Below are positions 2,023 to 32,094 of a stretch of DNA of 46,871 nt, piece by piece. The stretch lies in assembly GCA_044220955.1 (NCBI GenBank), contig JBGAQA010000017.1:53827-100697 (forward strand). Direction: 5' to 3'. Position 1 is the first letter of the stretch. The number at the start of each line of letters is the position of its first letter. The notes below the pieces were generated by a model. It was not told where the DNA came from. It saw only the letters and a program-made list of their open reading frames with translations, and ran no database searches. The position numbers were made by a program, and so were the translations under genes. The stretch is from Sandaracinaceae bacterium (lineage in GTDB: Bacteria; Myxococcota_A; Polyangia; Polyangiales; Sandaracinaceae).

Positions 2023-3663
2023 TCAGGGCGCGGAGCTCTCGAGCGACACGCTCGGGAGCGCCGGGATGGCGAGGTCTTCGCCGCGCGGGTACGCCCAGAG
2101 GATCGTGTTCCAGCCGATCGAGCCGCGGCGGATGACCAGGTGCTGCGCCGGATCGAGGTGTCCCGGCGGGTTCATGTAGTCGTCGTCCGTGACGAAGCCC
2201 TCGTAGAGGTAGTCGGTGAGCTCGCCCGCGTAGAGCACGCCGTCGTGCGGCTTGTAGTCGGCCTCGCCGAGCACGCCGCGGCGCAGGTACCAGGACACGT
2301 AGCCGCCCGCGCGGCGCGGCTCGGCGGTGTCGCTCAGCACGTCCTCGTCGGACGAGAAGATGCCCATGCGGCCCGGCCGCGTCATGAAGTCCTCGGCGAA
2401 GCCGCCGGCGTGGCAGGAGTCGAGCGCGAGGATGGTCGTGTTCGCGCGGATCGCGTCGAGCTCGCGCACCACCTCGGTGTCGGTGAGCTGGCCGTCGATC
2501 ATCACGACGGTCTCGTCGATGCCGTCGAGCTCGTGCGGGTCGCCGCCGGCGGGCACCGGCACGACGTTGCCGTGCCCCGAGTAGAAGATCATCACGACGT
2601 CGTCGGGCTGCGCGCGCGCCGCGAGGGCGCGGATGCCCGCGAGGAAGTTCGCCTGCGTCGCCTGCGCATCGATGAGCACGGTCTGCTCGTCCACGCGCTG
2701 CAGGTGCGCCGCGCGCATCGCGTCGCCGAGGAAGGTCGCGTCGTCGGCACAGCCGTAGAGGCGGCCGTGATCGACGTACTCGGTGATGCCGACGATGAGG
2801 CTCAGGATGCGGCCGCGCCCCTCCGGGCCGGCGAAGGGACCGCTCGGCACCGTCTCGCCCGCGTGCACGATCACCGGCGGGCGCACCGACGTCGCGACCG
2901 AGAAGGCGCCGCTGCCGCCGCCGCCGTACGCCGAGACGATCAGCTGGTAGGTCCCGCTCTCCGGCAGCGCCACGAAGACCGTGCTGTCGAGCGCGCGCTC
3001 GGTGCCCTCGGGCCCGAGGTCGTTCGCGTCGTCGTTCACCCAGCTCTCGCCGTGCGGGCCGATGACGGTCGCGATCGTGTCGAAGTCGCGCGAGGTCACG
3101 CGGATGCGCAGGATCGAGCCGCCCTGGCCGTCGAAGCGCAGGAACGAGTGGCCCTGGAACATCGGGTCGGACACCGCGCCGAGCGTGCCCGTCGCGCGGG
3201 CGTCGAGCGCGAGCGGCTCCCCCGGGATCACGCTGAGCGACTGGACGTCGACGATGTAGGCGCCGAGCTGGTTCGCGACCGCGGAGCTGACCGACACGCG
3301 GTAGGTCGCCGTGACCGGCGCCGTGAACTGCAGCATCGAGTCGAGGGTGTTCGGCAGCGCGTCGTCGTTCTCGATCGAGAAGTCGCCCGGCCCCGTGATC
3401 CGCACGACGGGATCGATCGCGCCCGCCGGCACGTGCACGCGCACGAGCTGCCCCTCGTTCAGGTCGAGGTCGTAGTCGTCGACGTGGTGCGAGCCGTCCT
3501 CTTCGCGATCGCTCGCGGTGAGCTCGCCCTGCGTGCTCGTCCCGATCGCGAGGCGGGAGGGCGCCGGGCCCTCGCCGTTCGCTTGCGGCGTGGTGGTCCC
3601 GGTGGGCTGGGCGCCGCCGCAGGCGACGAGCAGGAGGGTCACGAAGAGGGATGTCCGCGTCAT
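2023..3663 (-). CDS. Lipoprotein with two PPC-like domains and a C-terminal caspase-family (peptidase C14) domain
   Basis: MTRTSLFVTLLLVAC lipobox; two PPC-like beta repeats (DDYDLDLNEGQLVRV..ENDD; FLRFDGQGG..VNDD); His and Cys motifs FYSGHG and LDSCHAG. Confidence 0.88.
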   Translation of the reverse strand: MTRTSLFVTLLLVACGGAQPTGTTTPQANGEGPAPSRLAIGTSTQGELTASDREEDGSHHVDDYDLDLNEGQLVRVHVPAGAIDPVVRITGPGDFSIENDDALPNTLDSMLQFTAPVTATYRVSVSSAVANQLGAYIVDVQSLSVIPGEPLALDARATGTLGAVSDPMFQGHSFLRFDGQGGSILRIRVTSRDFDTIATVIGPHGESWVNDDANDLGPEGTERALDSTVFVALPESGTYQLIVSAYGGGGSGAFSVATSVRPPVIVHAGETVPSGPFAGPEGRGRILSLIVGITEYVDHGRLYGCADDATFLGDAMRAAHLQRVDEQTVLIDAQATQANFLAGIRALAARAQPDDVVMIFYSGHGNVVPVPAGGDPHELDGIDETVVMIDGQLTDTEVVRELDAIRANTTILALDSCHAGGFAEDFMTRPGRMGIFSSDEDVLSDTAEPRRAGGYVSWYLRRGVLGEADYKPHDGVLYAGELTDYLYEGFVTDDDYMNPPGHLDPAQHLVIRRGSIGWNTILWAYPRGEDLAIPALPSVSLESSAP

Positions 3664-3909
3664 GGCGGGCGCGAAGCTAGCACGACGAACCGGAGCGTCT
3701 CCCCCATACGAGGGAGGGCGGTGGCGTCGCGGCAGGGTGGGGCTGCTCCGAAGAGGCTCCATGCGCGTCACGAGGGGGGGATCTCGCTGGTCGGGATCTT
3801 CCGGCTCGTCGTGCCCCCGGCGCGCTCGCGGCCGACACGACGAACGCGTCCGGTGGCTGCAGCTGAGCCGGTAACGGCGCGGCCCGACTTGGGGGTACCA
3901 TCGCCCGCC

Positions 3910-5835
3910 ATGTTCGAGCTCGGCCCCAGCGTCCCCACCACCTGCACCGCCGACAACGCGCGCACCGTCGGCGAGATGTTCTACCTGCGCCGCGCGCGCA
4001 GCGCGTCCCGCCCGGCGCTCTACCACCGGCCGGCGGACACGTGGATCCCGATCACGTGGGACGAGTTCTACCTGCGCGCCGCGCGCGTCGCGAAGGGCAT
4101 CCTCGAGCTCGGCCTCACGCGCGGCGACCGCGTCGCGATCCTCGGGCCGACGCAGCCGCCCTGGGCGATCCTCGATCTCGGCGCCCAGCTCGCCGGGATG
4201 GTCAGCTTCGGCATCTACCCGAAGCAGTCGGTCGAGCAGGCGCGCTACCTGCTCGAGCACAGCGAGGCGAAGGTCGTCTTCGTCGACGAGCCCAAGGAGC
4301 TCGAGACGATCCTCGCCGCCGGCAAGGACGTCTCGACGCTCGAGACGATCGTTCCCTGGACGAAGGAGCTCTACGAGAAGTACCGCGCGCGCGACCGGCG
4401 CATCGTCTCGTTCGAGCGCTTCGAGGCCGAGGCGCTCCCGGACGCGGACGTCCGAAGCATCCAGCAGAGCAAGGACCCGGACGAGGTCGCCATCCTGATC
4501 TACACGTCGGGCACGACGGGGCCGCCGAAGGGCGCGATGCTCTCCCACAAGAACATCCTCTCGCTGCTCTCGTCGAGCGCGCGCGAGTCACCCTTCTCGA
4601 CGAGCGATCTCTCGCTCAACTTCCTGCCGATGGCGCACTCCGCGGAGCGCATCCTCGGCTTCTACGCGCGCGTCGCGAACGGCGTGACCGGCGCGTACGC
4701 GCAGAGCACGGCGACCGTGCTCGACGACCTCAAGACGGTGCGGCCGACGGTGTTCGGCAGCGTGCCGCGGATCTTCGAGAAGGCGTACACGAAGATCCTC
4801 GGGGAGATCGAGAAGCAGTCGCCCGCCGTGCGGCGCCTCTTCGCGTGGGCCGTCGACGTGGGCAAGCAGCGCATCCCCTACCTCACGACCGGTCGCCCCG
4901 TGCCGATGCACATCGAGGCGCGCTACAAGATCGCCGAGCGGCTCGTGTTCAGGCGCATCCGTGACGCGTTCGGCGGCCGCGTGCGCATGATGGTGACGGG
5001 CGCCGCGCCCACCGCGCGCGTGATCCTCGAGTTCTTCTGGGCCGCGGGCCTGCCGATCTACGAGGCCTTCGGCATGACCGAGGCGACGGTGATCACGCAC
5101 GCCAACCGCATCGGCGCCACGAAGCTCGGCACGGTCGGCCGCGTGATCCCGCCGGCCGAGTGCAAGATCGCCGAGGACGGCGAGATCCTGCTGAACGGCC
5201 CCTGGGTGTTCCGGGGCTACTACAAGCAGAAGGAAGCCACCGACGAGGCGCTCGCAGGCGGGTGGCTGCACACCGGCGACATCGGCTCGATCGACGAGGA
5301 CGGGTACCTCCGCATCACCGACCGCAAGAAGCACCTCATCATCACGGCGGGCGGAAAGAACATCTCGCCCGCGAACGTGGAGAAGGCGATCAAGGACGAG
5401 GAGTCGCTCGTGAGCCAGGTCCACGCGCACGGCGACCGGCGGAACTACCTCTCGGCGATCCTCGCGCCGAGCCCGATCGAGACGCTCGAGTGGGGCGTGC
5501 CGCGCGGGCTCGCCACCCAGGACGACGTGTTGCGCTTCACCAAGGAGCTGATGGACGACCCGCTCGGCCGCAGCGACGCGCTCAACGCGGCGATGGCGAA
5601 GGTGGTCGCGCACCCGGAGTTCAAGGAGCGCATGCGCGCGGCCGTCAAGCGCGGCAACGGCAAGCTCGCGCAGGTCGAGCACGTGCGCCGCTTCGTCATC
5701 CTCGATCGCGACTTCAGCCAGTCGCAGGGCGAGCTGACCCCGACGATGAAGATCCGCAGGAAGGAGGTCGAGGCGAAGTACGCCCCGCTCTTCGACAAGG
5801 TGTACGCCGAGGATCCGATCGGGATCGAGGTCTGA
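3910..5835 (+). CDS. Long-chain fatty acid-CoA ligase (AMP-dependent synthetase, FadD-like)
   Basis: YTSGTTGPPKG, FGMTE, GWLHTGDIG, ITDRKK..GGKNISP, ELTPTMKIRR motifs; start ATG 3910 follows TACCAT. Confidence 0.93.
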   Translation: MFELGPSVPTTCTADNARTVGEMFYLRRARSASRPALYHRPADTWIPITWDEFYLRAARVAKGILELGLTRGDRVAILGPTQPPWAILDLGAQLAGMVSFGIYPKQSVEQARYLLEHSEAKVVFVDEPKELETILAAGKDVSTLETIVPWTKELYEKYRARDRRIVSFERFEAEALPDADVRSIQQSKDPDEVAILIYTSGTTGPPKGAMLSHKNILSLLSSSARESPFSTSDLSLNFLPMAHSAERILGFYARVANGVTGAYAQSTATVLDDLKTVRPTVFGSVPRIFEKAYTKILGEIEKQSPAVRRLFAWAVDVGKQRIPYLTTGRPVPMHIEARYKIAERLVFRRIRDAFGGRVRMMVTGAAPTARVILEFFWAAGLPIYEAFGMTEATVITHANRIGATKLGTVGRVIPPAECKIAEDGEILLNGPWVFRGYYKQKEATDEALAGGWLHTGDIGSIDEDGYLRITDRKKHLIITAGGKNISPANVEKAIKDEESLVSQVHAHGDRRNYLSAILAPSPIETLEWGVPRGLATQDDVLRFTKELMDDPLGRSDALNAAMAKVVAHPEFKERMRAAVKRGNGKLAQVEHVRRFVILDRDFSQSQGELTPTMKIRRKEVEAKYAPLFDKVYAEDPIGIEV

Positions 5836-5887: not shown

Positions 5888-7273
5888 ATGTTCCGCGGGC
5901 GCGTTCGCAACATCCACTTCGTCGGCATCGGTGGCATCGGCATGAGCGGCATCGCCGAGGTGCTGCTCGCCAGCGACTTCCACGTCACGGGCTCCGACGC
6001 GCGCGCGAGCGACGTCACCAAGCGCCTCGAGGAGCTCGGCGCGAAGGTGTTCGTCGGGCATGCCGCGACCAACGTCGGCGACGCGGACGTCGTCGTGTTC
6101 TCGAGCGCCGTCGCCAAGGACAACCCCGAGCTCGTGATCGCCCGCGCGAACAACGTCCCGGTCATCCCGCGCGCGGAGATGCTGGCCGAGCTGATGCGCC
6201 TCAAGGACGGCGTGGCGATCGCCGGCTCGCACGGCAAGACCACCACGACCTCGCTCGTGGCCACGGTGCTCCGCGAGGCGGGACGCGACCCGACGGTCGT
6301 GATCGGCGGCAAGCTCAACTCGCTCGGAACGAACGCCGCCCGCGGCGAGGGCGATCTGCTCGTGGCCGAGGCGGACGAGAGCGACGGCTCGTTCCTGCAC
6401 CTCTCGCCCGTCGTCGCCGTCATCACCAACATCGACGCCGAGCACCTCGACCACTACGGCACGCACGCGAAGGTGAAGGACGCGTTCGCCGAGTTCGCCA
6501 ACCGCGTGCCGTTCTACGGCCTCGTGGTCGCGTGCCTCGATCACCCGCACGTGCAGGCGATCCTTCCGCGGATCGAGAAGCGTGTCGTGACGTACGGCCT
6601 CGCGGCGCAGGCCGACTACCGCGCCAAGAGCCCCGTGGTCGAAGGGCTCTCGACGCGCTTCACGCTCGTGCGCCGCGGCAGGCCGGGCGGCGAGTTCGTC
6701 GTGCGCATGCCCGGCATCCACAACGTGCTGAACGCGCTCGCGGTCATCGCCGTCGCCGACGAGCTCGACGTGCCGGAGGACGTGACGCGCCGGGCGCTCG
6801 CGGGCTTCACGGGCGTGCAGCGGCGCTTCACGATCCGCGGCGAGGCCGGCGGCGTCACGGTCGTCGACGACTACGGCCACCACCCGGCCGAGGTGCAGGC
6901 GACGCTCGAGGCCGCGCAGCGCGCCTACGGGCGCCGGCTCGTCGTCGCGTTCCAGCCGCACCGCTACTCGCGCACGCACCACTGCTTCGACGAGCTCGTG
7001 CGCGCGTTCAACCGCGCCGACGTGCTCTTGCTCGCAGACGTCTACGCCGCCGGTGAGGCGCCCATCCCCGGCGCGACGAGCCCCGAGCTGGCGGCGGCGA
7101 TCCGCGCGCACGGCCATCGCGACGTGACGTGGGCCGGGCCCCGCACCGAGGTCGCCAAGGCACTGGCCGCGCGCGTGCAGCCCGGCGACGTCGTGATCAC
7201 GCTCGGCGCCGGCGACATCACCCGCGTCGGGCCGGACCTGCTGGCCCTGCTCGGCGGCGACGCGAGCGCGTAG
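5888..7273 (+). CDS. murC: UDP-N-acetylmuramate--L-alanine ligase
   Basis: [49 protein letters not shown]. Confidence 0.97.
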
Positions 7274-7328
7274 CTCGCGGCCGATCGGCGAAGGCCGGGC
7301 CGCGGCAGGTGAGCTATCCTGCGCGGCG

Positions 7329-8147
7329 ATGACGGTTCCTCACGAGCGGCGGGGGTGGGCGCGGGCCAGCATGTTGCTCGCCGGGCTGGCCCTGTGGGCC
7401 GTGGGCAGCCCGGCGGCCGCGCAGACCGCGGGCCACGAGGACGATGGTCCGAGCCAGACGCCCGGCCAGAGCGAGCCCACGCGCGCGCGAGACGCCGGCG
7501 ATCCGCCCGAGGACGAGCTCGCCGAGGTGTCGTCGGGGCCGACGCTGCAGCAGCGCGAGCTCGCCGCGCGGCGGGGGCATCCGCTCGACCGCCCGTCGTA
7601 CGCGCCCGATCCCTCGGATCCGGATCTGCCCGTCGCCGTCACGATCGCGCTCGGTGGCGGCGCGACCGTCGTCGGGTCGTCCTTCGATGCCGTCCTCGCC
7701 TCGCACGACTACGCGAGCTCGACGGGCGTCTACCTCGGCGACGTCACCGTGCTCGGGCGTCTCGCGGACTGGTTCTTCCTCGGCGGGCGCCTCGGAGGCC
7801 GGGCGCGCACGTTCGTGCGCAACGACGGCCCGGGCGGCTCGGCCGGCGTCGTCGATCTGCAGCTCATCGCGATGGCGCGCGTCCAGCTCGGGCGCGTGAT
7901 CGATCTCGGCGTCCACGTCGGCGGTGGAGCCGGCGTCGTCGGGATCGCGCTCCACGACGGCGCCTCGAACGGCATCGCCCCGCGCGTCACCGCGGGCGTC
8001 CACCTCGCCTTCCGCGTCGGCCACGGCGTGCGCCTCGTGCTGCGCGGCGCCTACGACTTCTGTCGCTGGTTCGGCATCGATCGCTACGGCGACGAGCTCG
8101 AGCTCGGCGGCCCGAGCGCCGCCGTGGGGCTCGAGGTGCGATCGTGA
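7329..8147 (+). CDS. Secreted protein, probable small outer-membrane beta-barrel
   Basis: Signal peptide ending AAAQ, acidic linker, alternating amphipathic Gly-rich strands; TATCCT 8 nt upstream of ATG. Confidence 0.7.
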   Translation: MTVPHERRGWARASMLLAGLALWAVGSPAAAQTAGHEDDGPSQTPGQSEPTRARDAGDPPEDELAEVSSGPTLQQRELAARRGHPLDRPSYAPDPSDPDLPVAVTIALGGGATVVGSSFDAVLASHDYASSTGVYLGDVTVLGRLADWFFLGGRLGGRARTFVRNDGPGGSAGVVDLQLIAMARVQLGRVIDLGVHVGGGAGVVGIALHDGASNGIAPRVTAGVHLAFRVGHGVRLVLRGAYDFCRWFGIDRYGDELELGGPSAAVGLEVRS

Positions 8148-8722
8148 GGGCGGTGCGGGGCGCCGCGCGGCCGCCGATGATCGCCGCGCTCGCGCTGCTC
8201 GCGCTCGTCCCGGCGTGCAACGGCGCGAGCGACCAGGCGCTCTGGCGCGACGACTTCGAGACCCTCTGCGACGGAGTCCCCTGCGGCTGGTCGCAAGTGG
8301 CGGGGCCCGCCGGCGCGGTCACCTACGTCGAGACGGCGCCGAGCGAGCACGGCCTGCAGATGCGGGGCGACGGCGTCGCGATCTCTCGAACCGCGGACGG
8401 CGACGAGGTGCTCGTGCCGGCGATGGCGGCGTCGATGAGGGCGCACGTGGTCGCGCGCTGCGACGCCGGCTCGCAGATCACGGCGATCGTGACGGTCCGC
8501 AACCTCACGGGCGGCCTGCCGATCGACGTCTCGGGAGTCGCGACGTACCCGTCGACGTGGGACGGCACGCGCACGACCTTCGATCTCTTCGTCACGGACA
8601 GCGGCGACCGCGACGCCCAGTACGACGACATCCTGGGCGTCGTGCTCCACAAGGAGGGGCCGGGCGTCTGCGAGGTCGATTACGTCTCGCTCGCGGACGA
8701 CAACGTGCCCTTCTTCGAGTGA
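8144..8722 (+). CDS. Hypothetical lipoprotein (possible carbohydrate-binding-like beta-sandwich)
   Basis: GTG overlapping the upstream TGA; ALALLALVPAC lipobox; DDFETLCDGVPCGW...CEVDYVSL. Fold call is inference. Confidence 0.7.
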   Translation: MRAVRGAARPPMIAALALLALVPACNGASDQALWRDDFETLCDGVPCGWSQVAGPAGAVTYVETAPSEHGLQMRGDGVAISRTADGDEVLVPAMAASMRAHVVARCDAGSQITAIVTVRNLTGGLPIDVSGVATYPSTWDGTRTTFDLFVTDSGDRDAQYDDILGVVLHKEGPGVCEVDYVSLADDNVPFFE

Positions 8723-8773
8723 GCGCCTTGCCGTTTTTTTGAGCGCCCCGGCGGCACCGTGTATCTGCGGTGC

Positions 8774-10033
8774 ATGGCGATCGAAACGAGCGGCGAGAAC
8801 GAGATCATCGCGGGGCTGGACCTCGGGACGACCAAGGTCTGCGCGATCGTCGCCGAGGTCACCGACGACGGGCTGGACATCATCGGTGTCGGCTCGGTCC
8901 CCTCGCGCGGCCTGCGGCGCGGCGTGGTCGTGAACATCGACTCCACCATGCAGGCCATCCGCGGCGCGGTGGAGCAGGCCCAGACGATGGCCGGCGTGCA
9001 GATCGACTCGGTCTACGCCGGCATGTCGGGCAGCCACGTCCAGGGGCTGAACAAGGAGGGCGTGGCGGCCATCAACACCCGCGAGGTCACGGCCGACGAC
9101 GTCGCGCGGGTGCTCGAGCAGGCGCGCGCCATCCCGCTCGCGAGCGACCGCGAGGTGATCCACGTCCTTCCGCAGGACTACACGGTCGACAACCAGATCG
9201 GCATCCGTGAGCCCATCGGCATGAGCGGTGTGCGCCTCCAGGCGCAGGTCCACCTGGTGACGGCCGCGTCGGCCAGCGTGATGAACATCCGCCGCTGCTG
9301 CGAGCGCTCGAGCCTCGAGGTGGCCGAGGTCGTCCTCGAGCCGCTGGCGAGCGCCGAGGCCGTGCTCGAGCCGGACGAGAAGGAGATCGGCGTCGCGCTC
9401 GTCGACATCGGCGGCGGCACCTCCGACATCATCGTCTACGTCGACGGCGCCGTCGTGCACACGAGCGTCATCCCGATCGGCGGGCTCAACTTCACCAACG
9501 ACGTCGCCCACCGCTTCCGCACGCCGATCGCCGAGGCCGAGCGCCTCAAGATCAAGTATGGCTGCGCGAGCCCGGCGCTCGTCGATCCGGAAGAGGAGAT
9601 CGAGGTGCCCAGCGTCGGTGGCCGCGCTCCGCGGGCGATGTCGCGCCAGGAGCTGTGCGGGGTCCTCGAGCCGCGCGTCGAGGAGCTCTTCCAGTCGGTC
9701 GCGCACGCGCTCGAGCAGGGCGGCTTCATGCAGATGCTCGCGAGCGGCGTGGTGATCACGGGCGGCGCGACGCAGCTCGAGGGCATGCCCGAGATCGCCG
9801 AGCAGATCCTCGGCATGCAGGTGCGGCGGGGCTCGCCCATCGGCATCGGCGGCCTGTCCGACGTGGTGAAGAGCCCGGGCTTCGCGACGGCGGTCGGCCT
9901 GGTGAAGTACGGGGCGGCCAAGGCGCGCCTCGCGGCGCGCTCGCAGAGCCGCCACGTGGAGGTCGCGGTGCCGGCCGTGCGGCCCCGGTCCAGCTGGGCC
10001 TCGATCGGACAGTGGTTGAAAGAGGTCTTCTGA
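8774..10033 (+). CDS. ftsA: Cell division protein FtsA
   Basis: GLDLGTTKV, EPIGMSGVRL, VDIGGGTSD, VVITGG, C-terminal amphipathic WLKEVF. Confidence 0.97.
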   Translation: MAIETSGENEIIAGLDLGTTKVCAIVAEVTDDGLDIIGVGSVPSRGLRRGVVVNIDSTMQAIRGAVEQAQTMAGVQIDSVYAGMSGSHVQGLNKEGVAAINTREVTADDVARVLEQARAIPLASDREVIHVLPQDYTVDNQIGIREPIGMSGVRLQAQVHLVTAASASVMNIRRCCERSSLEVAEVVLEPLASAEAVLEPDEKEIGVALVDIGGGTSDIIVYVDGAVVHTSVIPIGGLNFTNDVAHRFRTPIAEAERLKIKYGCASPALVDPEEEIEVPSVGGRAPRAMSRQELCGVLEPRVEELFQSVAHALEQGGFMQMLASGVVITGGATQLEGMPEIAEQILGMQVRRGSPIGIGGLSDVVKSPGFATAVGLVKYGAAKARLAARSQSRHVEVAVPAVRPRSSWASIGQWLKEVF

Positions 10034-10104
10034 TTTTCCCTCGCTGCGTGAAGGCAGGGCGAGCCGACACGTAGCTCCAAACGCAGAAGGTGTGGGAGGC
10101 GAAC

Positions 10105-11445
10105 ATGGGCTTTTCGATCGAGTTCTCGGACGAGCAGGAGATGACCGCGCGGATCAAGGTGATCGGCGTCGGCGGCGGCGGCGGGAACGCCCTCGACACG
10201 ATGATCAAGAGCGGCCTCGAAGGGGTCGAGTTCATCGCGGCGAACACCGACACGCAGGCGCTCGAGAAGAGCCTCGCGACCACGAAGATCCAGCTCGGGC
10301 CGGCGCTCACGCGCGGCCTGGGCGCGGGCGCCAACCCCGACGTCGGCAAGAAGGCGGCCCTCGAGGAGATCGAGCGCATCCGCGAGGCGATCGACGGCGC
10401 CGACATGGTGTTCGTCACCGCCGGCATGGGCGGCGGCACCGGCACCGGCGCTGCGCCGATCATCGCCGAGATCGCGCGCGAGATGGGCGTGCTCACGGTG
10501 GCCGTGGTGACGCGGCCCTTCCTCTTCGAGGGCAAGCGCCGCAGCAAGAACGCCGATCACGGCATCGCGGATCTCAGCGAGCGCGTGGACACGATCATCT
10601 CGATCCCGAACCAGAAGCTGCTCGGTCTGGACGACGACCTCTCGGTGCTCGAGGCGTTCCGACGCGCGGACGACGTGCTCGTCCAGGCCGTGAAGGGTAT
10701 CAGCGACCTCATCACCCAGCCGGGCGTGATCAACGTCGACTTCGCGGACGTGAAGACGATCATGAACTCGCAGGGCCGCGCGCTCATGGGCACGGGCTAC
10801 GGCAAGGGCGAGCGCCGCGCGCTCGACGCGGTCGAGATGGCCATCAACTCGCCGCTGCTCGACGACATCTCGATCGACGGCGCGATGGGGATCCTGCTGA
10901 ACTTCACGGCGGGCCCGGACGTGAAGCTCAAGGAGATCAACGAGGCGGCCAGCCTCGTGCAGCAGGCGGCCCACGAGGACGCGAACATCATCTTCGGCCT
11001 CCTGACGGATCCCGACATGGGCGACGTCGTGAAGGTCACCGCCATCGCGACCGGCTTCGACGTCGATCGCGCCGCGATGCAGCCGATCGCCTCGCAGCAG
11101 CAGGCGGGCCGGCCGCGCAGCACGACGCTGCCCCTCTCCATCCCGCAGGCCACGATGGGCCGCGGCTCGCTGGCGCCGGCGCGCGAGAGCATCGCGCCCC
11201 GCAACGCGCTGCGTGAGCTCTCGAGCCAGCCGCCGGCGGCTCGCGAGTCGCGCGAGATGGGGCGCCGCGAGAGCGCCGAGCAGCTCGTCCGGGTCACCGC
11301 GGGCGGCCGCCGCTCGATGGCGCCCGAGCAGACCGCGCTCCCCATGGGCTCGCACGCGCCGCGCGCGTTCGGTCCTTCGGCGCTGCACGACGAGGCCACG
11401 CTGGACATCCCCGCGTACCTCCGGCGCGCGCAGTCGCACGAGTAG
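10105..11445 (+). CDS. ftsZ: Cell division protein FtsZ
   Basis: [30 protein letters not shown]-terminal [17 protein letters not shown] upstream. Confidence 0.98.
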
Positions 11446-11631: not shown

Positions 11632-14028
11632 ATGAAGACCGTGCTGGTGGGGGCGGACTTCGAGGAGAACCTCGGGGTCGGGATGGTCGCGGCCGCCGCG
11701 ATGGAGGCCGGGCACGAGGTCCGCATCGTCCCGTTCGACGCGCCGGAGGACGCGCCGCGCGTGGTCGAGCGGGTGATGGCCGAGCGACCCGACGTGGTGG
11801 GGCTGAGCATGCAGTTCCAGCACCGCGCCGCCGAGTTCGTGGAGCTCGCCGAGCGGCTGCGGGCGGCGGGGTGCGGCGCGCACGTCACCAGCGGAGGGCA
11901 GTACCCGAGCCTGGCCTGGCAGCCGATGCTCGAGGCACACCCGGCCATCGACTCGGCCGTGATGTACGAGGGCGAGCGCTCGTTCGTGGCGCTGCTGGCC
12001 GCCCTGGGGGCCGGCGCGCCGCTCGGGAGCGTCCCGGGCCTGGCGCTCCGCGACGGCGAGGGACACGCCTTCCGCACGCCGGGCGAGCTGCTCACGCCCG
12101 ACCTCGATGCGCTCCCGTTTCCCGCCCGCTACCGGGCGCACGCCCGGCACGCCGGCATCCCGTTCATCCCCGTCATGGGCAGCCGCGGCTGCTGGGGCGC
12201 GTGCACCTACTGCGCGATCACGAGCTTCTACCGCGAGGCGCGGGCGCACGGCGGCGGCAAGACCCTGCGCCACCGCAGCCCGGACGACGTCGCGGAGGAG
12301 ATGGCCGGCCTCTGGCACGAGGCGGGGCCGAGCCTCTTCTGCTTCCACGACGACAACTTCCTCTTCCCGCGTCCGGCCGACACCCTCGCGCGCCTGCGCG
12401 CGATCCGCGCCGGGCTCGACGCGCGCGGCGTGGGCAAGGTCGCGATGATCGGCAAGTGCCGGCCCGACTCGATGACGGCCGAGCTCGCCCGGGAGCTGCG
12501 CGCGCTGGGCGTCATCCGGCTCTACGTCGGCGTCGAGAACGCGAGCGAGCAGGGCTCGACGCACCTCAACCGTCGCATGCAGACGACGCGCGTCCGCGAG
12601 GCTCTCCGTGCCTGTCGCGAGGCGGGGATCTTCGTCTGCTACAACCTGCTCCTCTTCGAGCCGGACGCGACGATCGCCGACGTGGAGGAGAACCTCGCGT
12701 TCATGCGCGAGCACGCGGCGCACCCGGTGAACTTCTGCCGCGCCGAGCCCTACTACGGCACGCCGCTGCACCACCTGCTCGCCGCGCGCGAGACGATCGT
12801 CGGGGGCCACCTCGGCTTCGGCTACCGCATCGAGGACGATCGCACCGAGGTGCTCTTCCGCATCTGCGCGGCGGCGTTCCGCCAGCGGAACTTCGACCCC
12901 TCGGGGGTCGCCAACCGCACGATGGGCCTCGGCTACACGTCGAAGATCCTCGAGCACTTCTACGACGACCCGGACGGACGCCGCGCGCGGCTCTCGGCGC
13001 GCGCCGACGCGCTCACGCGGGCCATCTCCGCGGAGACGGCGGACTTCCTCGCCAGGGCCGTCGCCGTGGTGAAGGAGACGAGCCCGGCGGACGAGGACGC
13101 CGTCGCGCGGCAGACCGCGCGCCTCGGCCTGGACGTCGCCGCCGCCGATCGCGACCGGCATGCGCAGCTCGACACGCTCTACGCGGACATGGAGGCGTAC
13201 GGCGCCAGGGCGCGCACGCCGGCCCGGCCGGCCACGATGTCGCGCACGCTCGAGAAGGTCGCCCGCCGCGCGATGCTCGGTGCCTCGATCGCGGCGCTGA
13301 TCCCCGCGTGCGAGAGCTGCGGCAGCCAGCCGATGCCGGTCGATCCCCCGCCGCCCCCGATCACGGCGCCGCCGCCCGACCCGGTGCCGCCGCCGACGAC
13401 GGTGATGCCGGTCGATCCGCCGCCGCCGCCCACGTTCGTGCCTCCGATCGTCGATCCGGCACCACCGCCCACACACCTGGGGCCCCAGCTGCCGCCGACG
13501 ACCGTGATGCCGGCCGATCCTCCCCCGCGGCCGACGACGGTCGACACGAGCCGAAACGGCCGGCACCGAAGGCCGCCGCCGCCGCCGGATCCGGTGCCCC
13601 GGCCGACGGTGGTGCCGGTCGACCCGGTCCCCGCGCCGCACTCGTTTCTCCAGGGCGCGTCGCGTCGGGCGCTGGCGGTCCTCACCGATCGGCGCGAGCC
13701 GGGAGGGCTGATCGATCAGTGGCGCGACACGACGGCGCGGCGCGTGGGGCGCAGCGAGGCGCTGCCGCTCGCGGACCCGCCGGGCGTGGCGCTCTCGGCC
13801 CGACGGGCCGGCGACGCGCTCCGGGTCACGCTCTCGGCGCCCGAGGTCGCGACGATCCGGTGGGAGCGGCCCGGCGCCGACGACGCGGACCTAGGCCGGC
13901 TCGTGGTCGAGGAGGGTGGCCGCGCTCTCACGTGGCGCCCGGCGCTGCCGGAGGACCAGCTATGCGTCGCGGTGCGGACGGCGGGCGGGGTGACGATCGC
14001 GGCGCTGCGCGCGTGCGACGTCGCGTGA
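11632..14028 (+). CDS. B12-binding radical SAM enzyme fused to a lipoprotein-signal-like segment, Pro-rich DP repeats and a C-terminal domain
   Basis: N-terminal cobalamin-binding fold (ENLGVG, PDVVGLS, GGQYPS, EGE); SRGCWGACTYC (CxxxCxxC); FHDDNF; YVGVEN; PYYGTPL. Tail from 13237: MSRTLEKVARRAMLGASIAALIPAC, then 7 DP motifs. Confidence 0.92.
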   Translation: MKTVLVGADFEENLGVGMVAAAAMEAGHEVRIVPFDAPEDAPRVVERVMAERPDVVGLSMQFQHRAAEFVELAERLRAAGCGAHVTSGGQYPSLAWQPMLEAHPAIDSAVMYEGERSFVALLAALGAGAPLGSVPGLALRDGEGHAFRTPGELLTPDLDALPFPARYRAHARHAGIPFIPVMGSRGCWGACTYCAITSFYREARAHGGGKTLRHRSPDDVAEEMAGLWHEAGPSLFCFHDDNFLFPRPADTLARLRAIRAGLDARGVGKVAMIGKCRPDSMTAELARELRALGVIRLYVGVENASEQGSTHLNRRMQTTRVREALRACREAGIFVCYNLLLFEPDATIADVEENLAFMREHAAHPVNFCRAEPYYGTPLHHLLAARETIVGGHLGFGYRIEDDRTEVLFRICAAAFRQRNFDPSGVANRTMGLGYTSKILEHFYDDPDGRRARLSARADALTRAISAETADFLARAVAVVKETSPADEDAVARQTARLGLDVAAADRDRHAQLDTLYADMEAYGARARTPARPATMSRTLEKVARRAMLGASIAALIPACESCGSQPMPVDPPPPPITAPPPDPVPPPTTVMPVDPPPPPTFVPPIVDPAPPPTHLGPQLPPTTVMPADPPPRPTTVDTSRNGRHRRPPPPPDPVPRPTVVPVDPVPAPHSFLQGASRRALAVLTDRREPGGLIDQWRDTTARRVGRSEALPLADPPGVALSARRAGDALRVTLSAPEVATIRWERPGADDADLGRLVVEEGGRALTWRPALPEDQLCVAVRTAGGVTIAALRACDVA
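13330..13638 (+). repeat. Seven imperfect [V/P/A]-D-P-x-P-x-P peptide repeats
   Basis: Asp codons at 13342, 13378, 13414, 13453, 13516, 13588, 13621: VDPPPPP, PDPVPPP, VDPPPPP, VDPAPPP, ADPPPRP, PDPVPRP, VDPVPAP. Confidence 0.9.
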
Positions 14029-14967
14029 GCCAGCGGCCGGGCGAGCTGCGGCGGGATCCGCCTTCGTCTGGGGGGTCCCCGACCGGGTGAGCTCCTCGGC
14101 CAGCAGGTCGAACACCACCCGGATCCGCCGGCTCGTGAGCAGCTCGCCGTGGGCGACCAGCCAGACCGGAACGGGCAGCGGGGGGAAGTCGGGGACGACG
14201 CGCCGCACGCGCGGCTCGGCGTCGCCGACCTCCTCCATCACGAAGCAGATGCCGACGCCGTGCTTGCACAGCTCCCACTGCACCAGGTGGTTGTCGGTCA
14301 CGACCGGGAAGCTCCTCGGCGTCACCGGCACGCCCATCCGCACGAGGTGTCCGATCATCAGATCGGTGCGATCGAAGCCGAAGAACTCGGCGCTGCCGAG
14401 GTCGGCGCGGCTGCGCGGCGAGCCGATGCGCTCGAGGTACTCGGGGCGCGCGTAGGGGCGCGCGACGCGGTCGTCGATCTTGCGCCCGACGAGCTCGGGC
14501 TGGGCGGGCTTGGCGTTGCGGATGGCGATGTCGGCCTCGCGCCGCCGCAGATCGCGCACGGCGTTCGACGCCACGATCTCGATCTCGATGCCCGGATGCT
14601 CCCGCCGCAGGCGCGAGACGATCGGCGGGAGCAGGTACGCCGAGATGAGCTCGCTCGCGGTCACGCACACGCTGCCTTCGAGCGCGAGGGACTGTCCCGT
14701 CGCCGCGAGCGAGACGCGCGTCGCGGCCTCGCTCATCGCTCGGACGTGCTCGACCAGCTCGACCCCGGCGGGTGTGAGCGACAGGGCGCCGCCGATGCGC
14801 TCGAAGAGCACGACCCCCAGCTCCTCCTCGAGCGCCGCGACCTGGCGGCCGATCGTGGGCTGCGAGGCCTGGAGCGCGCGCGCGGCGGCCGAGAAGGAGC
14901 CCTCTTCCGCGGCGACGAGGAACGCGCGCGCACGGTTCCAGTCGAATCTCACCGAGCGCCATTCCAT
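13960..14967 (-). CDS. LysR-family transcriptional regulator
   Basis: DWNRARAFLVAAEEGSFSAAARAL..SQPTIGRQVAALEEELGVVLFER HTH; DLRRREADIAIR. Start may be 14979; 3' end overlaps the radical SAM gene by 69 nt. Confidence 0.93.
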   Translation of the reverse strand: MEWRSVRFDWNRARAFLVAAEEGSFSAAARALQASQPTIGRQVAALEEELGVVLFERIGGALSLTPAGVELVEHVRAMSEAATRVSLAATGQSLALEGSVCVTASELISAYLLPPIVSRLRREHPGIEIEIVASNAVRDLRRREADIAIRNAKPAQPELVGRKIDDRVARPYARPEYLERIGSPRSRADLGSAEFFGFDRTDLMIGHLVRMGVPVTPRSFPVVTDNHLVQWELCKHGVGICFVMEEVGDAEPRVRRVVPDFPPLPVPVWLVAHGELLTSRRIRVVFDLLAEELTRSGTPQTKADPAAARPAAGSRDVARAQRRDRHPARRPHRDA

Positions 14968-14979
14968 GCATATTTGCAT
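14966..14979. promoter_or_regulatory. Inverted repeat ATGCA-N4-TGCAT, probable LysR operator
   Basis: AT-rich dyad over the LysR start in the divergent intergenic region. Confidence 0.5.
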
Positions 14980-15059
14980 AGCACGGATGCGAACTACGGC
15001 GTCGCGCGTTCGTTTTTGCAGACGTAGAGATCGGGCGTCCACCCCACGAGGAGATCCCC

Positions 15060-27281: not shown

Positions 27282-29876
27282 TCAGCCCGGCTTCTTGGCG
27301 TCGGCGACGGCGATCTTCTCGCGCAATTCGCGCACTTCCGTCCGGAGCTTGTCGAGCTCGTCGCGGATCGTCGAGAGCTCGCGCCCGCGTGCCGCCTTGT
27401 CGCGCAGGTCCCGCAGCGCCTCGCGCGCGCCGCGGCGCACGCGGCCGTCGAGATCGCGGTCGACCAGCCGGTTCATCGCCGCCGCCGACCGGAGATCGCG
27501 CAGCGCCGCGAGCGTGCGCGCCGCTCCGATCCGGACGCCTGGGTCGAAGGCGTCGAGCGTCGCCTCGATCCGCTGGCGGATGGTCTCGAGCAGCGGCTCG
27601 TCGGTCGTCACCTCGCGCGCGCTCCCGAGCGCGTTGATGGCCGCGCGGCGCACCGAAGGGGCGTGCTTGGGGTCCAGGGCCTCGAGCAGCGTCGGGATCG
27701 CGCCCGGGTCGCGCAGCGCTCCGAGCCCGTCGACGTCGGCGGCGAGCACACAGTCGTTCCAGCTCACCGGGTCGCTCGCGAAGCGACCCGCGAGGATCGC
27801 CAGCGCGCGCGGGTCGCGGGTCTTGCCGAGCGCTCGCCGCGCCTCGGCCTCGACGAGGTAGCTCCGGTCGCCGCGCTCGATCCACGCGCTGAGCGCGTCG
27901 GCAGCCGCGGCGCTGCGGAAGCGGCCGAGCGCGGACGCCACCGCCCGACGTACGCGCGGGTGCGCGTCGGCGGCGGCGCCGACCAGGATCGCGAGCGCTC
28001 GCGGCGTCCGCTGCTCGCCGAGCGCCGTCGCGCACTCGGCGCGCACGGCCCAGAACGCGTCGCTGCCGAGGCCCTTGCCGAGCGCCTCGAGCGCGCGCGG
28101 CTCGTTGCGCGTCCCGAGCGCCCGGGCCGCCCGCCAGCGCGGGCGAGCCGCCGGGGCGGTCTCGAGCTGTGCGACGAGGAGCGGCGTCGCGATCTTGTTC
28201 TCGATCACCCCGACCACGTTCATCTCGGGGTCGATCACGATCATCTTGGGCACGGCCTTCGCCGGGATGACGAACGTCTCGCGGGCCTTGCCGATCTCGA
28301 GGACGTGCGTGCTCGACCCCTCGTCGGTGACGACGAGCAAGGGCAAGGACACCGTGAACGCCGGGGGCTCACCCGCCTTCGCGCTCTTCTCGACCACCGT
28401 CACGCGCAGCACGCCCGCGTCGTGCTCGCTCGACACCTCGAGCTGCGGGTGCCCGCCCTTCTGCGTCCACTGATCGAAGAACGCCTCGAGCGAGCGACCC
28501 GTGGCCTCTTCGAGCGCGCGCATCAGATCGCGGGTCTCTGCGCCCTGGCCGCGCATCTTGGCGAGGTAGTGCGCGAGCCCGCCGAAGAACGCGTCGTCGC
28601 CGAGGTGCTGCCGCAGCGCGTGCAGGACCAGGCCGCCCTTCTGGTAGAGGTGGCGGTCGAAGATGTCGATCGGCGAGGACCAGACGTTGGTGACGATGGC
28701 GCGGCGGTAGCGGCCGCCGTCCTCGTCCAGGTAGACCTCGAGGTCCTGCTCGAGGCCGTAGAAGTACGCGTCGCGGCCCTCGTCGTGCTCGCGCCAGAGG
28801 TGCTCGAGGTAGGTCGCGAAGCCCTCGTTGAGCCACGCGTGGCTCCAGTCGCGGCACGTGACGAGATCGCCGAACCACTGGTGCGCGAGCTCGTGGCTGA
28901 CGAGCGACTGCATGTCGACGTCGAGCGCGGCACGCTCGTCGAGCAGCGCGCGATCGTAGAGCGTGGTCGCGCTCGTGTTCTCCATGCCGCCGAAGATGAA
29001 GTCGCTGACGACGACCTGGGCGTACTTCACCCAGGGGAAGGGCGTCCGGAGCCGCTCCTCGAAGTGCGCGATCATCCTGGGCGTGGTGCCGAGCGAGCGC
29101 GCGATGGCTCCGGCGTGGCCCGGCGGGACGTAGTAGTCGACGGGCAGCGCAGGGCGGCCTGCCGTCGCGGGCAGCGTGTCGTGCGCCTCCTCGAAGCGGC
29201 CGGCGGCGAGCGTGACGAGATACGGCGGCAGCGGCTCGTCCTGGTGGTAGCGGAACGTCGTCCACTCGCCAGCCACTCTCTTCTCCACGAGCACGCCGTT
29301 GCCGAGCACGGTGAAGCCCGTGGGCACGGTCGCGCTGAGCTCGAGCTTCGTGCGGGCGCCCGGGTGGTCCTGGCACGGAAACCAGTGGCGATTGTCCTCG
29401 TCCTGGCCCTGCGACCAGACCTCGGTCGGCATCGAGGCGTCGTCGTGGAGCGGCGCCCGGAGCTCGCGTCGCGTGACGAAGTAGAGCCCGCGCCGCGGCG
29501 CGCAGCGGTACGTGATGCGCACGCGCACGCGCTCGACGTCGAGCGGCACGTCGATGCGGAGCGTGCGGCCGTCGTTCCGGTAGGTCGCGGGCACCGCCTG
29601 ATCCCCCGGGAGCAGCCGGACGACCTCCGACACCTCGAGGTCGATCGCGTCGAGCTCCAGCTCGGCGCGCTGCCGATCGACGCGTCGCGCGTCGAGCACG
29701 GCGACGCCCTCGACCGAGCGCTCCGCCAGGTTCACGCGCACGTCGAGCGTGGTGGACTCGACCGGGAAGGGGCGCGGCCGGCCCCAGCGCGGGGGATCGC
29801 CGGGGAGCGGGAAGGGGCGACCGTCCGCGGCGGAGGCGGCGGCCTCGAAAAGGTACGCACAGTGCCGACAGCTCAT
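27282..29876 (-). CDS. pepN: M1-family aminopeptidase with HEAT repeats and C-terminal coiled coil
   Basis: GGMEN, HELAHQWFGD..WLNEGFATY, YQKGG; PBS-lyase/HEAT repeats (VRAECATALG, VRRAVASALG). Confidence 0.93.
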   Translation of the reverse strand: MSCRHCAYLFEAAASAADGRPFPLPGDPPRWGRPRPFPVESTTLDVRVNLAERSVEGVAVLDARRVDRQRAELELDAIDLEVSEVVRLLPGDQAVPATYRNDGRTLRIDVPLDVERVRVRITYRCAPRRGLYFVTRRELRAPLHDDASMPTEVWSQGQDEDNRHWFPCQDHPGARTKLELSATVPTGFTVLGNGVLVEKRVAGEWTTFRYHQDEPLPPYLVTLAAGRFEEAHDTLPATAGRPALPVDYYVPPGHAGAIARSLGTTPRMIAHFEERLRTPFPWVKYAQVVVSDFIFGGMENTSATTLYDRALLDERAALDVDMQSLVSHELAHQWFGDLVTCRDWSHAWLNEGFATYLEHLWREHDEGRDAYFYGLEQDLEVYLDEDGGRYRRAIVTNVWSSPIDIFDRHLYQKGGLVLHALRQHLGDDAFFGGLAHYLAKMRGQGAETRDLMRALEEATGRSLEAFFDQWTQKGGHPQLEVSSEHDAGVLRVTVVEKSAKAGEPPAFTVSLPLLVVTDEGSSTHVLEIGKARETFVIPAKAVPKMIVIDPEMNVVGVIENKIATPLLVAQLETAPAARPRWRAARALGTRNEPRALEALGKGLGSDAFWAVRAECATALGEQRTPRALAILVGAAADAHPRVRRAVASALGRFRSAAAADALSAWIERGDRSYLVEAEARRALGKTRDPRALAILAGRFASDPVSWNDCVLAADVDGLGALRDPGAIPTLLEALDPKHAPSVRRAAINALGSAREVTTDEPLLETIRQRIEATLDAFDPGVRIGAARTLAALRDLRSAAAMNRLVDRDLDGRVRRGAREALRDLRDKAARGRELSTIRDELDKLRTEVRELREKIAVADAKKPG

Positions 29877-29964
29877 CGAGGCGACGTGTACACAGCGGCG
29901 GGCACGCTGGCAATCAGGGCAGTTGACGCCCCGCGTCGTGGCTGGCGATCATGCTGGGGCGCCA

Positions 29965-32094
<2,130 letters not shown>

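Follow-up and report, generated by a model that had tools for sequence, protein, structure and literature searches.

The window analysed here is the whole 46,871-nucleotide stretch of a Sandaracinaceae genome (assembly GCA_044220955.1, contig JBGAQA010000017.1), and our subject is a single gene within it, which encodes a radical S-adenosylmethionine (SAM) enzyme joined to a lipoprotein-like tail. Behind the enzyme the chain continues with a signal-like element, an array of Asp-Pro repeats, a conserved linear motif and an Ig-like end domain (Table 1).

Architecture of the gene

The third-position G+C (GC3) is 0.82–1.00 across all 150-nt blocks of 11632..14028, and thus the same frame is coding from start to stop, in agreement with the uninterrupted 798-residue open reading frame (ORF) claimed in a preliminary description of this DNA. 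No stop or frameshift occurs before nt 13237, and this position is crossed gaplessly by independent contigs from sludge metagenomes (X2 record 10, 12942–13389; X12 record 2, 13037–13289). The other features listed in that description were also recovered. The B12-binding domain and the radical SAM core with its CxxxCxxC motif were found with Pfam, and the helical region is seen in the AlphaFold2 (AF2) model. The seven x-D-P-x-P-x-P units have their Asp-Pro at residues 571, 583, 595, 608, 629, 653 and 664, and the eighth Asp-Pro is present as ADPP at residue 715. The compact C-terminal domain is modelled by AF2 as a seven-strand β sandwich over the last ~100 residues, with a predicted local distance difference test score (pLDDT) of 80.5. 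Finally, no separate precursor gene adjoins the gene in the window, where ftsZ lies upstream and a convergent LysR-family gene downstream.

Table 1. Features of the window, with residue numbers for the radical SAM protein
Feature	Residues	Nucleotides	Strand	Remarks
Radical SAM enzyme fused to lipoprotein-like tail, whole gene	1-798	11632..14028	+	798 aa and stop; open frame
B12-binding domain	12-121	11665..11994	+	Pfam PF02310, 68.8 bits (cut-off 32.1)
Radical SAM core	184-355	12181..12696	+	Pfam PF04055, 64 bits
Cluster motif C187-x3-C191-x2-C194	187-194	12190-12213	+	within the radical SAM core
Helical region specific to the superfamily	403-528	12838..13215	+	AF2 helices with pLDDT >90; kept in clades A-E
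Lipoprotein-type signal (predicted)	536-560	13237..13311	+	n-region M536-R546, h-region A547-A559, lipobox Cys560 (IPAC)
Seven D-P-x-P-x-P units	568-670	13333..13641	+	predicted disordered; pLDDT <50 for residues 556-691
Linear motif LIDQWRDTxxRRxxRSxxLPLxDPP	693-718	13708..13785	+	holds the eighth Asp-Pro
Ig-like β-sandwich C-domain (predicted)	719-798	13786..14025	+	AF2
LysR-family gene		13960..15042	-	convergent; 69-nt overlap (13960-14028) with the 3' end of the radical SAM gene
Protein with caspase domain (Peptidase_C14) and PPC domain		2023-4548	-	840 aa
MurC-type Mur ligase		5888-7273		dcw cluster
ORF in the place of ftsQ		7329-8147		dcw cluster; no Pfam match
ftsZ		10090-11445		dcw cluster
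Ser/Thr protein kinase with C-terminal DUF2378		29749-32094	+	

By domain content and fold, the N-terminal part is a class B (cobalamin-dependent) radical SAM enzyme, with catalysis predicted. The Pfam matches are the B12-binding and Radical_SAM domains alone; an α-N-methyltransferase domain was not found, and no SPASM family is among the Pfam and NCBIfam matches of the protein. C187, C191 and C194 are invariant in 64 aligned sequences. In the fold comparison with Foldseek, the core matches OxsB (E = 1.1e-21), TsrM (1.1e-18) and MgmA (3.6e-17) best, followed by AprD4, TokK and CysS, and at the sequence level OxsB and one other chain are the only solved relatives (E ~1e-6). The NCBIfam equivalog cut-offs are not reached for HpnR (100.1 against 650), ApyD (91.5 against 750), BchE (81.5 against 481) or HpnJ (72.2 against 578). 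C-methylation is the commonest chemistry of class B radical SAM enzymes, and these enzymes are slow. In the AF2 model of the full protein, the enzyme has pLDDT >90 to about residue 530 and is followed by a helix (538–556), a disordered segment (556–691) and the folded end domain.

The helical region and the repeats are separated by a segment that the preliminary description does not mention, MSRTLEKVARR-AMLGASIAALIPA-C (residues 536–560), which has the shape of a lipoprotein signal peptide with a predicted N-in/C-out orientation. Its h-region consists of 13 uncharged residues and is rich in Ala, with a Kyte–Doolittle mean of ~1.6 in the best 15-residue window. The element is not N-terminal in the window protein, since it begins at residue 536, behind the enzyme. 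Signal statistics were taken from the query and its best 120 homologs (121 proteins). The region was located in 109 of these; 11 proteins without the anchor motif and one cut by a contig end were left out. The residue before the Cys is Gly, Ala or Ser in 108 of the 109. Positions −32 to −15 upstream of the Cys hold on average 4.5 Lys/Arg against 0.65 Asp/Glu, the 14 residues preceding it carry no charge in 78 homologs and one charge in 30, and after it the means are 3.8 Asp/Glu against 0.7 Lys/Arg. The same preferences at −3, −2, −1 and +2 are found in 446 candidate N-terminal lipoproteins of the window genome, obtained by a crude screen for N-terminal signals, including the Pro at −2 seen in the IPAC sequence of the window protein. 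Given the conservation of this signal-like element, we predict export of the tail and regard it as probable; cleavage at Cys560 is a predicted step for which we see an even chance.

Several further observations concern this element. In the subclade of the window protein, a second Cys follows three residues after the first (Cys563; C-E-S-C, nt 13309–13320), with C-N-A-C and C-D-S-C in relatives, unlike most of the family, which has a single Cys. The twin-arginine route was set aside, since the RR ahead of the h-region is not conserved. There is no support for an internal start from which the tail would be translated on its own: an ATG is well placed in 14 of 55 genes (25%) against a background of 24%, and an internal start codon with a Shine–Dalgarno-like string occurs in 13% against 10%, which is no enrichment.

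Regarding the repeats, the mean DPxP count in 20000 shuffles that preserve the composition of the window tail is 1.1, and none reaches the seven of the tail itself; for 76 of 90 family tails, the DPxP count lies above that of every one of 300 shuffles of the same tail. The repeat is a sharply defined motif and no effect of composition. The linker of the 90 tails spans 61–200 residues with 2–15 Asp-Pro copies, and the consensus of their 574 units is M-V-V-D-P-[PVLA]-P-x-D-A-G, in which Pro at +3 is present in 93%, Asp at +5 in 73%, Val at −2 in 52% and Val at −1 in 46%. At the DNA level the array is only a weak tandem repeat. Among 5222 coding-like frames of the window genome, at least five DPxP within 150 residues occur in the window protein alone, and at least two copies of the hydrophobic-x-DPxP form occur only in its paralog (described below). 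The half-motif PxD[AS]G is common in this genome, with 227 occurrences and 21 frames that have two or more, and PDAG-like strings are present in several of 43 proline-rich linkers of candidate lipoproteins. A search of the ESM Atlas with the tail gave no usable match.

The linear motif that follows the repeats contains three invariant residues (D695, D699 and R707) and three that are at least 90% conserved (W697, P716 and P717), and its family version, LIDQWRDTxPRRAxRSxDLPLxxPP, is nearly invariant. In the fold search, the matches of the C-domain are all generic Ig-like ones (Foldseek E ≥4e-3, Z up to 7.3). No Pfam or NCBIfam family describes the tail or the C-domain, and none of 27 C-domain members matches a Pfam model. 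A C-domain profile searched against 1.84 billion representatives retrieved 161 proteins. The domain is C-terminal in all members, and every match with a complete N-terminus is this radical SAM enzyme; the weak end of the list consists of Big_9, PKD and cadherin-like surface proteins. The short matches of this profile search look like fragments, as they start in the middle of the enzyme, of the helical region or of the repeats. A separate search for shorter proteins, made to find stand-alone forms of the C-domain, gave two short matches.

The same plan extends through the family. A protein search found 639 relatives, of which the best 120 are 563–856 residues long and all have the B12-binding and radical SAM domains; the closest of these 120 is 78% identical and comes from a Sandaracinus metagenome-assembled genome (MAG). 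The alignments keep the enzyme, helical region, signal, variable repeats, linear motif and end domain. We compared 80 genome loci, all from MAGs and almost all labelled Myxococcota (Sandaracinaceae, Polyangiaceae, Haliangium and others). This is a sample of genomes, the relatives are not mutually independent and the gene calls are based on GC3. The C-domain lies downstream of the core in the same gene in 71 of the 80 loci. Among the other nine, the match runs to the end of the locus in at least L022, L051 and L057. Both the tail and its Asp-Pro are retained in homologs, with DPxP at variable copy number, mostly fused and in some cases in an adjacent gene. Among 401 sampled Myxococcota genomes, the C-domain was detected in 15 (12 of 255 genera), and several genomes have two or three paralogs. 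The window genome has a second copy (G000:C222:11075-13345; L082 1027..3408, minus strand) that is 54% identical, with the signal ...AATVTEGC and three FVVDPxPxDxG units, which are nearer to the family consensus than the Pro-richer repeats of the window protein.

These data bear on the possibility that nothing specific is present, i.e. that the tail is a low-complexity Pro-rich linker or that an assembly or annotation artefact has joined two genes. The host genome has ~73% G+C, which makes long open frames easy. However, the shuffles stay below the observed motif count, the motif positions are conserved, GC3 is of the coding type throughout, independent contigs span the junction and the same fused gene is found in 71 loci. 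These results refute this explanation, and we give it almost no weight.

Split gene pairs and deeper clades

A core-only query (residues 1–533) was searched in the same 401 genomes, and 40 second-tier loci were taken. Of the 59 matches listed below those of the family itself, 57 score 204–418 bits at 32–46% identity, with the helical region included. The cores of the 40 loci are 27–46% identical to the query (tblastn), and all 40 have CxxxCxxC. An internal signal of the same kind is present in 22 loci, and 17 loci have enzyme-only genes of 519–672 residues (16 at 519–574). A lipobox-type signal is absent from all 17 enzymes, and in 16 of them the strands of the B12-binding domain are the only hydrophobic segments; L123 (672 residues) has a hydrophobic stretch near residue 540, without a Cys.

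In seven of the core-only loci, the next gene encodes a separate lipoprotein precursor. The enzyme and precursor genes overlap by an ATGA start/stop in L091, L100, L102, L103 and L109, the precursor of L115 starts 23 nt past the enzyme stop, and that of L117 starts 35 nt before it. All seven precursors have their own N-terminal Met, a basic n-region, a hydrophobic h-region, a Cys, a DPxP motif and a β-rich domain, and they match no Pfam or NCBIfam family. The motif is VVDPxP in four of them and AVDPAP in L091, and a Cys precedes DPxP in L100 and L109; examples are GAVDPAPPPLEC, GVVDPLPMDSG, YAVVDPLPPPAQC and YAVVDPMPAPARC. DPxP is present in 7 of 10 downstream ORFs examined, against 40 of 446 (9%) control lipoprotein candidates of the window genome, and its hydrophobic form is found in 8 of these controls (1.8%). 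The split pairs show the internal element of the window protein to be homologous, in form, to a genuine N-terminal lipoprotein signal. Together, the fused and adjacent forms show that the enzyme and the motif-bearing lipoprotein are a unit held together by evolution, and since the enzyme is soluble and cytoplasmic and the lipoprotein exported, contact between the two would be possible only before export.

The precursors of L102, L103, L115 and L117 have unusually long n-regions, with ~40 residues ahead of the hydrophobic stretch, and share the conserved string L[LM]PE[VI]LPxP, which lies cytoplasmically of the signal. A conserved C-terminal tail, PLTx[IVM]G...[ATV]TPLQ, is found in the radical SAM enzymes of the same four loci and in that of L098. 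Either sequence could serve as a recognition element.

The DP repeat recurs in three deep Myxococcota clades of the enzyme superfamily (A, B and C), each with a Shimodaira–Hasegawa-like approximate likelihood-ratio (SH-aLRT) value of 100 in a tree of 60 cores. In clade B (five loci), VVDPxPPD or WVDPPPPDM repeats are combined with a diverged end domain. This domain is missed by the hidden Markov model (HMM) search and aligns to the C-domain in hhalign with a probability of 79% and E = 1.6e-5, so it is probably a diverged homolog. In clade C (seven loci), the signal is followed by four to five DPLPPP or VDPPPPP units and then the stop codon, for example ...PPPDPLPPPTMKK-stop. Because these repeats join onto nothing, they are not a linker. 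Other repeats were seen in further signal-bearing relatives: L097 (G262:C303) has four copies of THMCEMAPPP, each preceding a domain of ~110 residues, L111 has five copies of PEMAPRP at its extreme C-terminus, and L108 has SEMAPRP and SEMAPMP. In the split forms and in the clades of L097, L111 and L108, the acidic residue often has a Cys a few positions away at most; the repeats of clades A–C have no Cys.

The relatives also allow two other topologies of the window protein to be weighed. In the first, it would be an uncleaved bitopic membrane enzyme with a permanent anchor, a periplasmic repeat stalk and an Ig-like domain that docks to or senses the envelope. Topology rules do give N-in, C-out, the C-domain is a predicted β sandwich and its weak profile matches reach Big_9/PKD surface proteins. 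However, the h-region of 13 residues is short and Ala-rich, the near-invariant small residue and Cys would be pointless in a plain anchor, the enzymes of the split relatives are soluble and lack an anchor, and clade C has no end domain with which to dock. We regard a permanent anchor as improbable.

In the second, the protein would be fully cytoplasmic and borosin-like, modifying its own repeats, which are then cut into small natural-product peptides. The enzyme and repeats do form one chain with variable copy number and no separate precursor gene. On the other hand, the signal-like element is found in 108 of 109 homologs, the split relatives have ordinary N-terminal lipoprotein signals, and a folded Ig-like domain follows the repeats. 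In the flanks of the 80 family loci there are no conserved neighbour genes (the next largest gene cluster has 11 genes in eight loci), and no protease, transporter or other pathway gene is conserved nearby. A wholly cytoplasmic fate is therefore very improbable.

Relation of the enzyme to the Asp-Pro motif

The architecture and its conservation, the signal-like element, the specificity of the motif and the occurrence of both fused and split forms are direct observations, and the gene is best explained as a two-part Myxococcota module that has become fused naturally, composed of a cytoplasmic class B radical SAM enzyme and a DPxP lipoprotein precursor. The simplest reading of the two parts is that of a maturase and its substrate, because the short motif alone persists across the DP-bearing clades, and linkers, copy number and end domains vary. 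An enzyme–substrate relation between the radical SAM core and the DPxP motif is evenly poised as a prediction. The complete scheme, in which the fused pair would have its DPxP units modified in the cytoplasm before export and cleavage by LspA, is put forward tentatively and a little below an even chance, and methylation as its chemistry is possible and rather doubtful.

In this scheme, the enzyme domain would fold in the cytoplasm and modify DPxP units, either in its own tail or in that of a neighbouring molecule, at an unactivated Asp or Pro carbon of the unfolded precursor. The Ala-rich, weakly hydrophobic signal would then carry the tail through Sec, Lgt would lipidate it and LspA would cut at Cys560. 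The product would be a Pro-rich lipoprotein in the envelope, with seven modified units and the Ig-like end domain. The preliminary description had proposed that the DP repeats are cis-encoded substrates in a borosin-like protein. One part of this proposal stands, since the homologs support a specific link between the core and DPxP. The cytoplasmic core peptide does not, since the signal lies between the enzyme and the repeats, so that the tail would be an exported lipoprotein module and any modification would have to precede export.

Several results weigh against the maturase–substrate relation or the steps built on it. First, the signal was called by simple rules and not by a trained predictor, and the strict E. 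coli lipobox [LVI][ASTVI][GAS]C is satisfied by only 23 of the 109 homologs. Second, AF2 leaves residues 556–691 disordered and gives no sign of docking; a complex prediction of the core (1–545) with the repeats (567–690) scored 0.00, which counts neither way. Third, the downstream ORFs of L113, L116 and L119 have no DPxP, and no coupled lipoprotein gene was found within ~2.4 kb of DNA at L096, L098, L099, L110, L118 and L121. Fourth, some signal-bearing relatives have other motifs, of the E-M-A-P types, and L104, L106, L114 and L122 bear a signal without any such motif. The widened motif [DE][MP]xP occurs at 2.3 per 100 residues against 0.085 in control lipoproteins, a 27-fold excess that is descriptive only, because the motif was defined after the sequences had been viewed. 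Fifth, the deep order of clades in the 60-core tree is unresolved, with core-only clades interspersed, and a single origin of the enzyme–motif pairing is thus unsupported. Lastly, co-translational targeting by the signal recognition particle, if it applies, would leave the tail little time in the cytoplasm.

The closest competitor to a maturase and its substrate is that the radical SAM enzyme and the exported lipoprotein share a pathway without acting on each other. The enzyme would then have a different target, such as a membrane lipid, another protein or a small molecule, the lipoprotein would serve on the other side of the membrane, for example in binding, transport or sorting, and VVDPxP would be a structural, tethering or sorting element. 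The fused gene would be a neutral fusion of two overlapping genes, which the topology permits, as a signal peptide can follow a cytoplasmic domain. The split genes with ATGA overlap are a small change away from such a fusion, half of the repeat (PxD[AS]G) is common in the window genome, the best NCBIfam similarity is to the hopanoid methylase HpnR, far under its cut-off, and the linker is variable in length. However, the hydrophobic DPxP form is specific to these proteins when compared with the control lipoproteins, the motif outlasts other parts of the tail across clades, with the repeats alone remaining in clade C, and no other pathway genes are conserved nearby. We consider a shared pathway unlikely, though it deserves to be taken seriously.

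Class B radical SAM enzymes are numerous and mostly have no assigned substrate, and here the genome itself points to a candidate, as a short motif accompanies the enzyme by inheritance, in fusion or as a neighbour, in lineages that share only 27–46% identity. If the motif is the substrate, it would provide a direct handle on a new C–H functionalization of Asp or Pro, and lipoproteins could be chemically tailored before export; in addition, a cytoplasmic enzyme and an exported protein would be made as a single chain and parted by signal peptidase. One gene would then supply the enzyme, the export signal and the multi-copy substrate. A radical SAM enzyme would here, for the first time, be fused in nature to its substrate, and a pathway resembling those of peptides that the ribosome makes and that are modified after translation (RiPPs) would for the first time pass through the lipoprotein route. 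More generally, one may envisage a class of tailored envelope lipoproteins, whose Asp-Pro motifs are modified before Sec by a dedicated B12-dependent radical SAM maturase, with the maturase fused ahead of the signal in many lineages and lipoprotein signal peptidase acting as the 'leader protease'. We offer this generalization as a conceivable one that still falls short of probable.

Genomic surroundings and comparison with known systems

In the window, the gene follows the end of a cell-division (dcw) cluster (5888–11445), in which the ORF at 8759–10033 is presumably ftsA, as judged by its position, and the gap between ftsZ and the radical SAM gene is 186 nt. A link to cell division was rejected, as ftsZ and ftsA are found in none of 80 related loci, including L001 and L002 with 87%-identical cores; the placement after ftsA–ftsZ is peculiar to the window genome among these loci. 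At the other end, the overlap with the LysR-family gene falls in a low-complexity extension of ~40 residues, as the LysR substrate-binding domain stops at residue 318 of 360. An Rfam scan of the whole window gave no match and thus no cobalamin riboswitch in the window, and a scan for promoters and terminators gave nothing useful. DNA nearly identical to 12800–14028 is present in metagenome runs from activated sludge, sludge and bioreactors (20 rows from 11 studies, of which 10 rows hold at least half of the sampled words), and no RNA run is among the listed holders.

We compared the protein with known systems that share one or more of its parts. Class B enzymes with peptide or protein substrates, such as PoyB/C, the bottromycin methyltransferases, MgmA/QCMT and ApyD, have the same N-terminal B12-binding domain and CxxxCxxC core with matching folds. 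The window protein differs from them by its own helical region and, uniquely, in that one polypeptide also carries a signal peptide, motif repeats and an Ig-like domain. B12 binding and a conserved C-terminal tail are also features of the CUAEP/CCAEP-tail radical SAM proteins (NF040546), which the window protein matches weakly, with 56.5 bits (cut-off 500); their tail is a short C-terminal peptide, in contrast to the predicted exported repeat array found here.

Regarding the joining of enzyme and substrate, borosins (autocatalytic α-N-methyltransferases of the OphMA type) similarly carry the enzyme and the presumed substrate in one polypeptide with the substrate on the C-terminal side. Compared with them, the window protein has another enzyme class and chemistry, an intervening lipoprotein signal, a folded domain after the repeats and, as its predicted product, an exported lipoprotein in place of a small cytoplasmic peptide. 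Multi-core RiPP precursors are similar in having a repeated conserved motif in variable copies, as in the 90 tails. Bacterial lipoprotein precursors share the basic n-region, the uncharged h-region, the small residue at −1 and the Cys at +1, and differ in that the signal of the window protein starts after 535 residues, behind a folded enzyme. The Bradyrhizobium cytochrome b–c1 precursor FbcH is the only polyprotein known to us that is cut at a signal peptide within the chain.

The closest system in logic is that of the periplasmic Ser-type sulfatases, which are matured at a short motif by the radical SAM enzymes anSME/AtsB (PMC3920027). That system also combines a cytoplasmic radical SAM maturase, an exported target and a short Pro-containing linear motif (PMC3920027). 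A gene coupling of the anSME kind is seen here in a fused form in clades A–D and in a split form with ATGA overlap in five loci. The anSME enzymes are of the SPASM type and lack B12, unlike the B12-binding core of the window protein. Their target motif, (C/S)xPxR, is part of an enzyme active site, and to our knowledge they are never fused to their target. A full-text literature search, made in a limited collection, brought up no account of a natural fusion between a radical SAM enzyme and either a substrate or a lipoprotein; a paper on Tat tail-anchored proteins that it raised proved unrelated. In summary, we rate the enzyme class and the maturase logic as already known, and the placement of the enzyme before an internal lipoprotein signal, together with the new candidate substrate motif, as new.

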